Source: an uncultured cyanobacterium
GTDB taxonomy: Bacteria > Cyanobacteriota > Cyanobacteriia > Cyanobacteriales > CAWCAG01
Assembly (NCBI GenBank): GCA_963803805.1
Contig: CAWDOD010000002.1
Location: 1,248,001 to 1,312,000, forward strand
Length of the DNA: 64,000 bases
Direction of reading: 5' to 3'
This document shows positions 40,999 to 47,466 of this stretch, in pieces. The notes beneath the pieces are model-generated. The model was not told the origin of the DNA and ran no database searches. It was given only the letters and a program-made list of their open reading frames with translations. Numbering within the stretch: position 1 is the stretch's first letter; every line of letters begins with the position of its first letter. The position numbers were made by a program, and so were the translations under genes.

Positions 40999-42471
40999 CT
41001 AGAAAAGTTCTCCGAAGCCTTTTTTCTTTTTCCCTTTCTTCTTCTTTTTCTTGGAACCCCCTGAATAGCCACGGAAGCCAGGGCGAGGAGCATTCCCACC
41101 TATGCCACCAAACATTCCCCCCATATCGCCTCCCATACCACCCATTCCAGGCATTCCCATTCCGGGCATTCCTCCCCCCTGTCCCATTTGCTGCATCATG
41201 CCTCGCATCCGGGTAAAATCTTTGACTAATTTGCCGACATCGCTTTCTTTGAAGCCGGAACCTTTAGCGATGCGGCGGCGACGGCTGGGAGATTTGGCTA
41301 GTAAGTCAGGGTTTGACCTCTCTTCTGGGGTCATGGAGTTAATCATCGCCTCAGTACGCTTAAGTTGTACTTCCCCTTTTTCCAAGTCTGAACTACTCAA
41401 CTTGCCCATACCGGGAATCATCTTCATCAATCCCCCCAAAGAACCCATATTTTTCAAGAGGCGCATTTGTTTGAGGAAGTCATCAAAGCCAAATCTGGCT
41501 TCCATGATTTTGGCTTGCATTTCGGCAGCATCAGCAATATCAACTTCTTCCTGGGCTTTTTCTACCAGGGTTAGAACATCCCCCATACCCAAAATGCGAG
41601 AGGCCATACGGTCAGGATAAAAGGGTTGCAGGGCTTCTACTTTTTCTCCTACTCCCACAAATTTAATGGGTTGACCAGAAATGCGACGTACCGAAAGTGC
41701 CGCCCCCCCACGAGTATCTCCATCTAATTTGGTGAGAATTGCCCCGGTGATGCCGATTTGTTCGTGGAAGGTGTAGGTAAGGTTAGCGGCTTCTTGCCCT
41801 GTCATGGCATCTACAACCAGGAGAGTATCGTCAGGTTGAATCGTTTCTTTAATTTGCCCTAACTCCCCCATCATTTCTGGGTCAATTTGGAGTCTTCCGG
41901 CAGTGTCAATGATGACGGTATCAACACCCATTTCCTGGGCTTTCTCTACCCCTTGGCGGGCAATTTCTACCGGGTTAGCATCCGTACCCATTTCAAATAC
42001 AGGTACGTTAATTTGTTCTCCTAAAGTGACTAACTGATCAATAGCTGCTGGGCGGTAAATATCCGTAGCCACCATTAAGCAATCGCGGTTTTGCTTACGC
42101 AAATGTAGTGCTAGCTTAGCTGTGGCAGTGGTTTTTCCTGTACCTTGCAAACCTGCCATTAAAACTACAGTTGGTTTAGTTTCAGCTTGGGCGAGGGGAA
42201 CATTGGTTTCTCCCATCACCTTAACTAATTCATCATGAACAACTTTAATAAATTGCTGATCAGGACGTACCCCGGAAACTACTTCAGCCCCTTGGGCTTT
42301 ACTTTCTACCTCAGCGATAAAGTTCTTAACCACTTGGAGGTTAACATCAGCCGCTAAAAGGGCGCGGCGTACTTCTTTTAAGGCTTCTTGAATATTAGCT
42401 TGAGAAATTTTATCTTGACCGCGTAGCTTTTTCCAAGCATCCTCTAAACGGTCGGCTAGGGCATCAAACAT
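40999..42471 (-). CDS. ffh: Signal recognition particle protein Ffh
   Basis: GLQGTGKTT, DTAGRL and TKLDGDTRGG motifs; Met-rich M domain. Confidence 0.97.
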   Translation of the reverse strand: MFDALADRLEDAWKKLRGQDKISQANIQEALKEVRRALLAADVNLQVVKNFIAEVESKAQGAEVVSGVRPDQQFIKVVHDELVKVMGETNVPLAQAETKPTVVLMAGLQGTGKTTATAKLALHLRKQNRDCLMVATDIYRPAAIDQLVTLGEQINVPVFEMGTDANPVEIARQGVEKAQEMGVDTVIIDTAGRLQIDPEMMGELGQIKETIQPDDTLLVVDAMTGQEAANLTYTFHEQIGITGAILTKLDGDTRGGAALSVRRISGQPIKFVGVGEKVEALQPFYPDRMASRILGMGDVLTLVEKAQEEVDIADAAEMQAKIMEARFGFDDFLKQMRLLKNMGSLGGLMKMIPGMGKLSSSDLEKGEVQLKRTEAMINSMTPEERSNPDLLAKSPSRRRRIAKGSGFKESDVGKLVKDFTRMRGMMQQMGQGGGMPGMGMPGMGGMGGDMGGMFGGIGGNAPRPGFRGYSGGSKKKKKKGKKKKGFGELF

Positions 42472-42555: not shown

Positions 42556-43152
42556 TTAATTCAACTCGGAGTTGAACTCGTTGAAGGAACGCCTTTTCAA
42601 CTCCACTGACTCAGAACGAGGTAGGAGATCAAATACTTCCCGGAAAACACTATCAATGTCTTCAAACTTAGCTTGTCCAGTTTGATTAAAGACAATCTCA
42701 CGATTTTGATTTAGTAAGACAGTTTGAGGAATTGCCCCTTGGTAGTAATAACCTACTTCTTCAGGACTGTATTCAGCCTTGATCGGAATAGAATCGACAT
42801 TGATGGGAATAAAACTCGCTACTTTGCCGTAAAATCGCTGTAACTGAGAGATAACCTCAGAAAATCTTTTACAATCGCTGCTATCTTCTACATAAAAAAC
42901 TAACAGAGCAACTTTATCTCTTTGGAAAGATTCTACTAAGGTCATGCGAGGGGGGACTAAAGAGCCATTCCCGGCATAAAGAGCAAAGATATTGCCATCA
43001 AACCTGTCGTCTTCAAGCCCTGCTTTGGCTGAGGGGGTTCCGAAAAGCAAGAAACTGCTTAGCCCAGCTATGAGTATTATTGAGCAAAAACGAAAGCAAA
43101 TTTTTCTTAACTGAAGGTTATTTAGCCAGTGGTGCAACCGCGAAAAAATCAT
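42556..43152 (-). CDS. Thioredoxin-like thylakoid protein (putative photosystem I accumulation factor family)
   Basis: Signal/TM segment then DDRFDGNIFALYAGNGSLVPP...SSDCK...RRSFNEFNSEL. Start trimmed to ATG 43152 because the longer ORF overlaps the tRNA. Confidence 0.7.
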   Translation of the reverse strand: MIFSRLHHWLNNLQLRKICFRFCSIILIAGLSSFLLFGTPSAKAGLEDDRFDGNIFALYAGNGSLVPPRMTLVESFQRDKVALLVFYVEDSSDCKRFSEVISQLQRFYGKVASFIPINVDSIPIKAEYSPEEVGYYYQGAIPQTVLLNQNREIVFNQTGQAKFEDIDSVFREVFDLLPRSESVELKRRSFNEFNSELN

Positions 43153-43236
43153 AAGGTTCTTTTTACCAATTAAATCAGCTATTATTAATAGTACAGCTAG
43201 GGGCTGTGGCTCAGTTGGATAGAGCAAGCGCCTCCT

Positions 43237-44086
43237 GAACAATCGGGCCTCTTGGGGGAAACTCCAGGTAGTGAATGCGGTCAAATTCAAGGAAGCCTAA
43301 GTCTGTTTAAACAGAGAGGGTAATCTTGAGCCAAGCTTATATTTGTCTATATAGACAAGTTATTTGAAGGTGCAGAGACTGGTTGAATGAGAGCTAAAAA
43401 ATGATGGACTATGATGTCTCATCAAAAGTAGAGCAAAGAGGCATTCTGGCCGGGATGTTATTGGGTGCAGGCAGGAGAAATAAACAAAATTTCTATCTTC
43501 TAAACCTGAATTTGCCAGAGGAATATGTTCTATTTAAAAAGCAACTCCTTGAACAAATCATCCGTAAGCCAGTTAGTCTTCGGGAAAGAAAAACTAAAAA
43601 CGGTACTGCCTTAATACGCTTAGAGCCAAAGTTAATTCCCTTAACTAGGGTTTTGGTTAAAAAGTTTTATCAAGGAACAACTCCTAAAATTACGAGGAAG
43701 TTTCTTGGTCTTCTAACCCTTCCTAGTATCGCAATTTGGTTTATGGATAAAGGTTCTAAATCTTTTAAGAGAAAGAACGGAAAAATCCATAGCCTGGAAG
43801 TTAACTTCAATACCAATATCTGCCAAGCAGAAAACGAGTTGATAGTAGCTTATTTTGCTGAAGTTTGGGGTTTTAAGTGGGGATTAAGCCAAGGTAGAAA
43901 CGCTTACCGTTTAAGGATGGGGACGAAAGAAGGTAAAAGGTTTTTCCGTTTCCTTCATCCCTATATTCATCCCGCTATGCTCTACAAAATAGAAACCTCT
44001 TGTCAACATAACGGCCGCCACCTAAAAGAGTTTTGTTCTTATGGTGAAGGGATAGTCCAGAGAGTGGGGAAACTCACACAAATCTG
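43237..44086 (+). ncRNA. Group I self-splicing intron (IC3-like), 850 nt, inserted 3' of the CCU anticodon
   Basis: P1 CCU|GA:UCGGG with U.G at the 5' splice site; P2 with GAAA loop; P3 GCGGUC:GGCCGC (44013-44018); P4 UUCAAG:CUUGAG; R GCAGAGACUG; S AAGGGAUAGUCC; P8 CACC..GGUG with CCUAAA/UAUGG receptor; P9 GUGGG-GAAA-CUCAC; terminal omega-G at 44086. Confidence 0.92.
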
Positions 44087-44087
44087 A
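43401..44087 (+). CDS. Intron-encoded two-motif LAGLIDADG (LAGLIDADG_2-like) homing endonuclease/maturase, degenerate active sites
   Basis: Motif 1 ILAGMLLGAG, EEYVLFKK, motif 2 LTLPSIAIWFMDKG and C-terminal PYIHPAMLYKI. Basic protein lying inside the intron. Confidence 0.8.
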   Translation: MMDYDVSSKVEQRGILAGMLLGAGRRNKQNFYLLNLNLPEEYVLFKKQLLEQIIRKPVSLRERKTKNGTALIRLEPKLIPLTRVLVKKFYQGTTPKITRKFLGLLTLPSIAIWFMDKGSKSFKRKNGKIHSLEVNFNTNICQAENELIVAYFAEVWGFKWGLSQGRNAYRLRMGTKEGKRFFRFLHPYIHPAMLYKIETSCQHNGRHLKEFCSYGEGIVQRVGKLTQI

Positions 44088-44535
44088 AGCGCTAGGTCGC
44101 CGGTTCAAATCCGGCCAGTCCCGTTTTTTCAATGCTCAATGCTAAGTTATCTTGGTTTAGCCACTTAAGTTCAATCTAGTATAAGTAATAGTTTGTCTAA
44201 GTTCAGTTGGTTATTAAATCTTTTGAATTTACATAACTTCAACTTAAAATTTGTCAAGTCCCAAAAATTTCTCCAAAGGACGCATTTGTGTGGTTTAATT
44301 AGGAAATCAGAAAATTACACTGCTACGTTTTTGTCTAAAGTCAACATCAAATCTCTATAAGGTAGATAAATCGTTGGTTTTGATGCTATTTTTCCACAAA
44401 AGCATAGTGATAAGAAGGGCTAGGTCGAACAAATTTTGAGGCAATTTCAAAAGTTTTTTTGACAAATAAAGCGCTTTAAGTTAGAAGCAATTTGCTTGTG
44501 ACTTTTTTTGTCTATTCCATTTTTCTTCCTTGACA

Positions 44536-46038: not shown

Positions 46039-47466
46039 ATGCTCAAAAACGCTAACGACATACGCTCTCCTGTTTCTACTAAAATTCCTTATCGAATCAT
46101 TGTTAACTGGTTAAGAATTATTGTCTTAATCGTTTTAGACACTGTAAATTTGTCTTTAGCTTGGTTAGCGGCTGAGAGATTAGGTACACCAGTCAATAAC
46201 TTCAACTTAGTTTGGCAACCTGGACAAGAAGCGCCTCTGCTAATACCCATTTTGATAATCACCTTGGGTATTTTGGCAGCATCTGGACTTTATAGCACAG
46301 ACGATAAACGACGCAGCTTCATAGCTTTGCTCAAAGCTATACTTCTAGCTCATACCCTCTTGTTGATCACTGCATTTCTCTACAACCCCAAAACTTGGAT
46401 ATCCCGCTCAGTATTCCTCTGGGCTTGGTTGCTAACCCTTGTCTTTGTTAGCATAGAGCGTTTTCTGCTGCACTTTGTCATAGTCAACCTACGTCGCCGA
46501 AAAGCTGTTTTACGTCCCCTAGTTTTTCTCCTCGGTAATCCAGAAGATATTACTGGGGCTCAAAAGCTACTTAAGCGTTCTAGGGAATTTAAGATTTCTG
46601 GGACAGCAGATTTATCAATTCGTGAAGATCCGGAAAAATGGGCACAAATGCTCCAAGATATCGCAGCACAAAGGGTTAGCGAAGTATTCGTCTGTTCCTG
46701 GCAATCTGTTCAAGACCCAATTATTTTATTTTGGGAACTAAAATCAGCCGGAATCCAACTAAGAGTTCTACCCATTAGTTTGGATCTACCAGGACAGTGG
46801 TCTGAAATAAAAATGATTGGTCAATTTACCACCATTAGATTCAGTACCCCTCCAATAATAGGAGGGGATTTCTGGCTTAAAAGAGGTTTTGATTTGGTTG
46901 CTTCATCAACATTGCTACTCTTGCTGAGCATACCATTACTAATAATTTCTATTTCTATTCAACTAGATTCCCCTGGCTCCATATTTTACAAGCAAACTCG
47001 TGTAGGTTTAAAAGGTCGCCGTTTCAAAGTCTGGAAATTTCGTACTATGGTTGCTAACGCTAGTCAATTGCAAAAGCAGCTTGAAGAAAGAAATGAAGTT
47101 GAAGGAGGAATTTTATTCAAGATTAAAGACGACCCACGCATTACTAAAGTAGGTAAGTTTCTGAGACAGTATAGTCTTGATGAATTACCTCAATTAATCA
47201 ACGTCCTGCGGGGAGAAATGAGTCTGGTTGGCCCCCGCCCTCTGCCCGTAAGAGATGTAGAAAAGTTTTCAGAAACACACTTTTTGCGCCACGAAGTACT
47301 ACCGGGAATAACAGGTCTTTGGCAAGTTAGCGGTCGTTCTAATGCAGATTCTGAAGAGGTATTTTACTTAGACCTTGCCTATATTCAACATTGGTCTTTG
47401 GCTCTTGACTGTAAAATTTTACTAAAAACTATTCAAGTTGTTCTAGCCAGGGAAGGAGCTTATTAA
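46039..47466 (+). CDS. Priming polyprenyl glycosylphosphotransferase (WcaJ-like sugar transferase)
   Basis: KRGFDL, FKVWKFRTM, DDPRITKVGKFLRQYSLDELPQL, GEMSLVGPRP and PGITGLWQVSGRS motifs. Confidence 0.93.
   Translation: MLKNANDIRSPVSTKIPYRIIVNWLRIIVLIVLDTVNLSLAWLAAERLGTPVNNFNLVWQPGQEAPLLIPILIITLGILAASGLYSTDDKRRSFIALLKAILLAHTLLLITAFLYNPKTWISRSVFLWAWLLTLVFVSIERFLLHFVIVNLRRRKAVLRPLVFLLGNPEDITGAQKLLKRSREFKISGTADLSIREDPEKWAQMLQDIAAQRVSEVFVCSWQSVQDPIILFWELKSAGIQLRVLPISLDLPGQWSEIKMIGQFTTIRFSTPPIIGGDFWLKRGFDLVASSTLLLLLSIPLLIISISIQLDSPGSIFYKQTRVGLKGRRFKVWKFRTMVANASQLQKQLEERNEVEGGILFKIKDDPRITKVGKFLRQYSLDELPQLINVLRGEMSLVGPRPLPVRDVEKFSETHFLRHEVLPGITGLWQVSGRSNADSEEVFYLDLAYIQHWSLALDCKILLKTIQVVLAREGAY

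Follow-up and report, generated by a model that had tools for sequence, protein, structure and literature searches.

An I-SceI-family reading frame kept without its canonical active site in the group I intron of a cyanobacterial tRNA-Arg(CCU) gene

A split tRNA-Arg(CCU) gene and its predicted ribozyme

The window, a stretch of 64,000 nucleotides (nt) from the forward strand of an uncultured cyanobacterium (Cyanobacteriales; CAWCAG01; GCA_963803805.1, CAWDOD010000002.1:1,248,001-1,312,000), contains a tRNA-Arg(CCU) gene divided by an 850-nt insertion, by its predicted fold a group I intron, within which lies an open reading frame (ORF) for a LAGLIDADG protein of the I-SceI family. This ORF is intact and under purifying selection, without a canonical active site. 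An earlier note on the same DNA had proposed two tRNA halves 850 nt apart, a compact P1-P9 group I ribozyme between them and a 228-codon LAGLIDADG-like ORF, and all three proposals have held up: the first through ARAGORN, run on the joined exons and with introns allowed; the second through a match, under the gathering score, to the Rfam group I intron model RF00028 and through covariation across 31 introns; and the third through a match to the Pfam family PF03161. The absence of both catalytic aspartates (Asp, D) from the encoded protein is a point that the note had left unnoticed.

Joined by script, positions 43200-43236 and 44087-44123 were called by ARAGORN as a tRNA-Arg(cct) of 74 nt whose cloverleaf is regular, and the same tRNA was recovered from the unaltered sequence 43100-44250 when introns were allowed, with an 850-nt intron directly 3′ of the anticodon (‘ctcct-Intron-aagcg’). 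The spliced tRNA has an acceptor stem of 7 bp (one G.U), an anticodon stem of 5 bp and the loop CUCCUAA, the predicted splice sites restoring the canonical anticodon loop of tRNA-Arg(CCU). Exon 1 (43200..43236, +), also verified by sequence check, comprises the acceptor 5′ strand, the D arm, the anticodon stem 5′ strand and the loop as far as the anticodon CCU; exon 2 (44087..44123, +), whose region gave a partial RF00005 match of 19.8 bits, comprises the AA of the anticodon loop, the anticodon stem 3′ strand, the variable loop, the T arm, the acceptor 3′ strand and the discriminator G, CCA not being encoded. Default ARAGORN called zero tRNAs in the window, and Rfam at the gathering score reported zero families there, so that genomes with such a gene appear to lack tRNA-Arg(CCU). 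To this extent the expectation that annotation pipelines would miss the intron was right; its further part, that they would call only a lone hypothetical protein, was not borne out, since several relatives of the protein bear the NCBI names ‘LAGLIDADG endonuclease’ or ‘DNA endonuclease’.

The compact intron itself (43237..44086, +) is inserted after the third anticodon base. RF00028 matched 43224-43551 (43.3 bits, E 1.8e-9, in E-value mode; 37.6 bits in a search of the genome), with P1 to the P7 5′ strand well placed and the 3′ half wrongly forced into the ORF; with its core divided by the ORF, the intron stays short of the gathering score, which is 50. The model was passed by five ORF-less homologues (54.5–81.4 bits) and by the window's ORF-bearing congener (53.2 bits), homologues that align column by column with the window, while one Coleofasciculus locus (L001) gave no RF00028 match.

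Covariation was assessed in an alignment of the window intron with 30 others (11 ORF-less, 19 ORF-bearing; n = 31), folded with RNAalifold after removal of the ORF columns; two spurious local hairpins were removed and P7 was added as a pseudoknot. In the resulting 77 pairs, 95.9% of cells were standard-paired, compared with 30–40% when partners were slid by 1–3 columns, and both-sided (compensatory) changes were present in 29/77 pairs; 0/500 shuffles reached any of five measures. P1, P4 and P7 were invariant or nearly so, and are thus supported by conservation and not by covariation.

The elements follow one another in the order expected of a P1-P9 ribozyme, all on the + strand. P1 (43234..43247; CCU|GA with UCGGG; 5 pairs, 100% paired) carries the wobble U43236.G43245 at the 5′ splice site, a pair found as U.G in 31/31 introns. 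P2 (43248..43273; 7/10 pairs compensatory) is closed by a GAAA tetraloop, L2 (43258-43261), invariant in the alignment. The P3 5′ strand GCGGUC (43277..43282) pairs across the ORF with the 3′ strand GGCCGC (44013..44018; 100% paired, 2/6 pairs compensatory). The P4-P5 domain (43287..43329) has nine pairs at 100% and five distal P5 pairs, four of them compensatory, and contains the receptor-like motif CCUAAG (43296-43301); P6 (43330..43371) consists of two helices, one with compensatory changes in 6/7 pairs. The 5′ strand of P7, the G-binding helix (43375..43380), which forms the pseudoknot with P3, pairs with AGUCC (44054..44058), five pairs that are invariant in 31/31. Between P7 and the P3 3′ strand, at the P7.1 position, lies an extra hairpin (43382..43390 with 43998..44007; 6/9 pairs compensatory, 86.7% paired) that holds the ORF in its loop and, as comparison of the 3′ tails indicated, has one extra base in its 3′ strand in the window. 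P8 (44019..44046) is made up of three helices, with compensatory changes in distal pairs, and includes the motifs CCUAAA (44021-44026) and UAUGG (44040-44044), conserved like the motif in P4-P5. P9 (44064..44077; 5 pairs, 99.4% paired) ends in a second GAAA tetraloop, L9 (44069-44072). The last intron nucleotide, G44086, is the omega-G, invariant in the alignment and coincident with the intron end called by ARAGORN. The splice-site wobble, omega-G, both GAAA loops and the P8 receptor had been placed at these same coordinates in the earlier note, and a check of the sequence agreed throughout. Further insertions, of tens to about 110 nt, were seen in the P5 or P6 loops of the ORF-bearing introns L013, L014, L021, L025, L028 and L030–L032 (alignment columns 85-260); the peripheral loops therefore tolerate expansion.

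The combination of GAAA loops on P2 and P9 with CCUAAG-type receptor motifs in P5 and P8 is typical of the tRNA introns of small size found in bacteria, for which Azoarcus serves as the model. The Azoarcus pre-tRNA-Ile(CAU) intron (IC3) resembles the window intron in helix order and size and, by its motifs, in two tetraloop/receptor pairs; it differs in residing in another tRNA and is not known to have a hairpin at the P7.1 position or an ORF. Group I introns of tRNA-Arg(CCU) were first described in Agrobacterium and other alphaproteobacteria. Four tRNA intron types count as classical in bacteria, Arg.5Ug among them and each of subgroup IC3, and split tRNAs are more frequent in cyanobacteria than in any other phylum, at 0.69 split tRNA genes per genome (Williams 2020, bioRxiv 10.1101/2020.01.27.920355). 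The same work gives 922 bp as the length of the second-longest intron, which is the length of three introns collected here (L022, L024 and L032). The window intron lies in the same gene as Arg.5Ug introns, likewise after the third anticodon base, and has in common with them U-1, omega-G, a small core, GAAA tetraloops on P2 and P9, and motifs resembling receptors in P8 and P5. The window intron differs in its 228-codon ORF, set in the extra hairpin between P7 and P3′, whereas the classical examples are short and not known to carry an ORF; this comparison of cores covers cyanobacterial introns only. By its predicted fold, then, the 850-nt insertion belongs with the small group I introns of bacterial tRNA genes (IC3-like), the IC3 label following Williams 2020. 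In Mohanta 2017 (PMC5733544), only Leu(UAA) and fMet introns are said to have been reported in cyanobacteria; the ‘group I introns’ of 22–49 nt given there for cyanobacterial tRNA-Arg(ACG), Gly and Lys were set aside as far too short.

An I-SceI-family protein lacking both aspartates

The ORF (43401..44087, +) has 228 codons, and its conserved start is the second ATG, at 43404. In ORF-bearing introns the ORF fills the loop of the P7.1-position hairpin, so placed that P3 and P7 close across a loop of ~610 nt; most other introns have the hairpin, and the minimal intron (L044, 211 nt) passes from P7 straight to P3′ without it. The site has a precedent in the group I introns of transfer-messenger RNA (tmRNA), small bacterial introns in which LAGLIDADG genes are reported to lie ‘in the P7.1 region’ of 19/23 gene-bearing introns; these differ in their host, tmRNA (T-loop), and belong mostly to other phyla (PMC11915505).

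Coding sequence and ribozyme overlap at the 3′ end, the last codons traversing the hairpin 3′ strand, P3′ and the P8 5′ strand. Of 29 distinct ORF-bearing introns, 22 have as their stop codon the UAA within the receptor-like motif CCACC-UAA-RG of P8, a triplet that thus has one part in the RNA fold and another in ending translation. A 1-nt insertion (~44000-44003) has done away with this arrangement in the window and its congener: in the window, the extra base in the hairpin 3′ strand shifts the frame, and the ORF therefore misses the P8 UAA and ends at a TGA spanning the 3′ splice site. A smaller overlap may exist at the 5′ end, where a hairpin GAUGGAC/GUC(U)CAUC (43403..43423, +), hinted at by a single covarying pair with the remainder invariant, would enclose the conserved start codon; in 20 ORF-bearing rows, ATG occurs with CATC in 12 and ATA with TATC in exactly the other 8. 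With ATA (in all family f53 rows of the alignment, and L012), the conserved N-terminus is left without a canonical start codon, yet these ORFs are open and have low ratios of non-synonymous to synonymous substitution (dN/dS).

PF03161 (LAGLIDADG_2) matched the protein over profile positions 1-168/168 with 96.1 bits against a cut-off of 25; no NCBIfam family matched it. An AF2 model built from a 36-sequence alignment had a mean pLDDT of 86.9 and a pTM of 0.82, with two long helices ending at residues 21 and 117 and a 27-residue tail (residues 202–228) at pLDDT <50, predicted to be disordered. The prediction agrees with the two-fold pseudo-symmetric alpha-beta-beta-alpha-beta-beta-alpha fold of the family. 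Foldseek placed I-WcaI (E 6.6e-12, TM 0.70) and I-SceI at the top, with TM 0.66–0.71 for the two; further down came the bI3 maturase (rank 9) and WhiA and its LAGLIDADG domain (ranks 10, 15, 21 and 27). The protein thus shares Pfam family, sequence profile and predicted fold with I-SceI and I-WcaI, which are monomeric PF03161 enzymes, at 19–23% identity. It also differs from I-SceI in having Ala and Lys at the aligned Asp pair. In the profile alignment to I-SceI chains, Ala23 (43467-43469) aligns to the D of ‘GLILGD’ and Lys117 (43749-43751) to the second D of ‘WFMDDGG’, D44 and D145 by the chain numbering in the alignment. With neither LAGLIDADG helix ending in an acidic residue, and with Ala and Lys at ligand positions, the protein was not classed as an active endonuclease; most likely it has lost canonical double-strand cleavage, to judge from these two residues.

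Loss of the Asp pair is a trait of the family and not peculiar to the window protein. Database search recovered 155 relatives at E <= 0.001 among 368 candidates, the named ones all cyanobacterial and mostly filamentous (Coleofasciculus, Oscillatoria, Lyngbya, Symploca, Laspinema). Across 120 family representatives, motif 1 had D in 41; at motif 2, 43 had D, 37 had K and 20 had R. Both sites were acidic (D/E) in 33/120, and the same number had D at both; one was acidic in 20/120 and none in 67/120. On a FastTree tree, no fewer than 14 switches from ‘both’ to ‘not both’ or back are required. Asp116, which adjoins the lost second site, was invariant in 120/120.

The earlier note had also stated that I-Ssp6803I, of a cyanobacterial tRNA intron, is PD-(D/E)XK and not LAGLIDADG, in agreement with Haugen 2007 (PMC1995217), where it is the only endonuclease listed for endonuclease-bearing tRNA introns. 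Its host, the tRNA-fMet intron of Synechocystis PCC 6803, is like that of the window a cyanobacterial anticodon-loop group I intron with a homing endonuclease gene; according to the same source, I-Ssp6803I has 150 codons and is of the PD-(D/E)XK type, whereas the window protein is of the I-SceI-family LAGLIDADG type without the catalytic Asp (PMC1995217). In the full-text literature no description was found of a LAGLIDADG gene in tRNA-Arg(CCU) introns or of its Asp loss, which is not proof of novelty, since most subscription journals lay outside reach. What is new is the conservation of an endonuclease-derived protein without its active site, and what is known is the Arg.5Ug intron type itself.

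Distribution and persistence of the intron and its reading frame

The intron was sought in samples of 391–401 genomes of the window's order and in a separate phylum-wide sample of 401. In a DNA search, a query of exon 1 plus the 5′ core matched 318/401 genomes of the order and the 5′ core alone 150/401, a few weak matches among which may be other related tRNA introns. The exon/intron junction pattern (exon 1 end plus intron start) was found in 174/391 genomes of the order, with 0 matches to the reversed control pattern, and the ORF in 73/401 genomes of the order and 6/401 of the phylum-wide sample. The arrangement is ordinary and widespread in the order, not rare, and with Arg.5Ug a classical type and cyanobacteria the phylum richest in split tRNAs, the pairing of intron and protein does not merit the word ‘unusual’ given to it in the earlier note.

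The best 30 places, the window included, were all tRNA-Arg(cct) genes with the intron at this position, 11 of them short (211–297 nt, ORF-less) and 19 long (840–923 nt, ORF-bearing); eight Coleofasciculus loci had an 866–868-nt intron at the same site of tRNA-Arg(cct). More widely, ORF-less (211–297 nt) and ORF-bearing (832–969 nt) forms coexist, and the insertion site was identical in all 44 loci (two being the window itself). The survey of trnR-CCU loci for which the earlier note had called thus turned up intron-plus, intron-minus and ORF-minus alleles among relatives, the patchy pattern of a mobile intron. Presence was at the same time strongly structured by family (junction pattern in 11/11 genomes of f53, 22/26 of f2, 0/14 of f8 and 0/11 of f13), and much of the inheritance therefore looks vertical.

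Contig sets, not raw reads, from four RNA-library runs carried environmental relatives of the intron. ORF-less relatives matched 43319-43338 and 44040-44125, a 169-nt contig joining 43338 to 44041 with 96 other letters between; several contig variants differed in the P8 loop, and what is probably an intron-less tRNA-Arg(CCU) gene lay on a 6.2-kb contig. Contigs spanning both splice sites also exist in these libraries and may be DNA or precursor. These contigs show that allele types coexist in nature and have no bearing on splicing of the window gene.

A distribution of this kind would suit a protein still working as a homing enzyme, one that cuts or nicks intron-less tRNA-Arg(CCU) genes through other residues and owes its selection to ongoing homing. 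Besides the mobile look of the counts above (the junction in 174/391, the exon-containing query in 318/401 against 150/401 for intron alone, and the coexistence of ORF-plus and ORF-less forms), the 20/120 relatives that keep one acidic site could be nickases, and Asp116 is invariant beside the lost site. The window protein, however, has neither acidic residue; a Lys at a metal-ligand position cannot, by established chemistry, bind Mg2+; and in family f53 the ORF persists though 11/11 sampled genomes already hold an ORF-bearing intron, an empty target site thus not being seen in that family. Continued homing by the window protein is in our view quite improbable, while D/D forms, for example those of Coleofasciculus, may still spread the intron.

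The loss of catalytic residues could equally be expected of a homing endonuclease gene that was recently disabled and is drifting functionless to loss, in the decay phase of an invasion-decay-loss cycle. Such decay would accord with the +1 frameshift in the hairpin 3′ strand, which replaces the usual stop and adds the 27-residue, predicted-disordered tail, with the ORF-less introns, which show that the ORF can be deleted, and with a few truncated relatives (L028, and a split gene in genome G435). Neutral drift, however, predicts dN/dS of about 1 and stop codons. Ratios were calculated by NG86 over codons 8-200 (192–193 codons), upstream of the overlap with the 3′ core, with 1000 bootstraps. 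Between the window and its congener, both with A/K at the two sites, dN/dS was 0.18 (dN 0.068, dS 0.380; CI 0.10–0.32), and other pairs lacking Asp gave similar values: 0.25 for L010 and L011 (A/K vs T/K), 0.26–0.30 among L017, L020 and L023 (V/C, A/C, V/C) and 0.15 for L025 and L030 (S/A vs C/A), Asp-less pairs thus ranging over 0.15–0.30 at dS up to 0.7. Values were 0.13 for L021 and L027 (D/R vs E/R; dS 1.0) and 0.09–0.27 for the D/D pairs of Coleofasciculus. For every pair, 0/1000 bootstraps reached 1. Frames of at least 206 codons were open in nearly all loci, and the gene was broken or split in about 2/73 genomes. Functionless decay is accordingly the reading to which we give least credence, as very unlikely.

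No sign of a phage or plasmid carrier of the ORF was seen: tblastn against 50,697 phage records returned five, all gut phages at 28.8–31.7% identity, and against 72,556 plasmid records none. No mobile-element genes adjoin the tRNA gene either, its neighbours being ordinary: genes for SRP54/Ffh (40999-42471, -), a thioredoxin-like protein (42556-43290, -; the longest ORF call, certainly overlong since it reaches into the tRNA exon) and, on the other side, a bacterial sugar transferase (46039-47466, +). In the genome as a whole, ARAGORN called 46 tRNAs, and the split gene is the sole tRNA-Arg(cct) among them. The tRNA-Leu(UAA) gene, in which the cyanobacterial group I intron classically resides, is uninterrupted (default ARAGORN), which makes the tRNA-Arg(CCU) intron the genome's only clear tRNA intron; ‘introns’ called in SeC, Glu, Val and Gln tRNAs when introns were allowed had no Rfam support and were taken as false positives. 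A second, weak RF00028 match outside the window (C2:997698-997787, -; 27.4 bits, E 2.8e-4, model positions 60-149 only) lies within no ARAGORN-callable tRNA; it could represent either the diverged core of a group I intron in some other gene or a chance match.

A possible role after the probable loss of cleavage

We think it likely that the locus is a split tRNA gene whose group I intron carries an ORF descended from an I-SceI-type enzyme, and that this protein has lost cleavage and been kept for a role that does not involve it. To form the P1-P9 ribozyme, the pre-tRNA would have to close P3 and P7 over the ~610-nt loop, and splicing, as the fold suggests, would proceed by two guanosine-dependent transesterifications at U43236 and G44086 to yield the mature tRNA. 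The ORF would have begun as a LAGLIDADG homing endonuclease gene, through which the intron came to occupy tRNA-Arg genes that had been empty. With the Asp lost, yet the ORF intact and under purifying selection, some non-cleaving activity of the same fold is presumably what is retained.

What that activity might be can be proposed with far less assurance. Our favoured guess, a tentative one that we would not hold even to be probable, is a maturase-like role, in which the protein would bind its own ORF-swollen intron RNA and aid its folding. It is favoured because reviews name this as a known escape route and because P7 and P3′ must meet across ~610 nt. The reviews describe a known route by which homing endonucleases whose nuclease function is lost live on as maturases (PMC3943268 section 8; PMC3984707 section 9), and maturase-like activity is attributed to the LAGLIDADG protein of a Thermotoga 23S intron (PMC3984707 section 7). 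LAGLIDADG maturases such as yeast bI3, I-AniI and the Thermotoga neapolitana 23S-intron protein are kept to fold their own group I introns, which lie in rRNA or mitochondrial protein genes; the window intron, in contrast, lies in a tRNA gene, and its protein may act likewise. The broader proposal, that a large and long-lived group of cyanobacterial tRNA-Arg(CCU) intron proteins gave up cleavage and survives as dedicated maturases, is more doubtful still.

The fold would serve as well for a protein that binds DNA (or tRNA) sequence-specifically without cleaving it, a regulator or an occupant of the target site comparable to WhiA and no splicing factor. A DNA-binding saddle like that of I-SceI is predicted at high confidence, the fold matches include WhiA and its LAGLIDADG domain, basic residues replace Asp, and the ribozyme core has no decay calling for a helper. 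A host regulator would, however, be expected to stand free, and the gene was found only inside the intron (all 44 loci); nor does any result suggest a target other than the tRNA-Arg site. We regard such a binder as unlikely, though somewhat less so than continued homing.

Several observations weigh against retention of the protein for a non-cleaving role, against its action as a maturase, or against parts of the argument on which both depend. ORF-bearing introns have ribozyme cores that look no less intact than the cores of their ORF-less counterparts, and so give no sign of dependence on a protein. Pairwise dN/dS is silent on which function is selected, and a database of predicted proteins favours intact ORFs. 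The argument for lost cleavage takes D44 and D145 of I-SceI to be the metal-binding catalytic residues. The conserved start is ATA, not a canonical start codon, in 8/20 ORF-bearing introns. The window intron's own Rfam score lies under the gathering score, and no spliced product assignable to this organism was present in the contigs of the four RNA-library runs. The joint 43236>44087 was found there once, on a contig of 6211 nt with 6 mismatches in 76 nt, and was rejected as a spliced product, being probably the intron-less gene of another organism.

One aspect merits a test at the bench, namely the conservation of an endonuclease-derived protein without its active site. For the annotation of these organisms, the apparent absence of tRNA-Arg(CCU) may extend to nearly half of the genomes sampled from the order. 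The overlap of coding sequence and ribozyme, with the stop in the P8 motif and the start in a small hairpin, provides a compact example of dual constraint. More generally, the intron family offers dozens of natural variants at one tRNA site, with no ORF, both Asp, one Asp or neither, a ready system in which to ask why a homing endonuclease gene survives once its product no longer cuts. This question of survival after cleavage is discussed in two reviews (PMC3943268, PMC3984707) and has few bacterial test cases. Were the maturase proposal true, it would supply the first case of a maturase for a group I intron in a tRNA gene, and a single order of cyanobacteria would hold a natural series that starts with an active homing enzyme (D/D), continues with possible nickases that keep one Asp and ends with a pure RNA chaperone.

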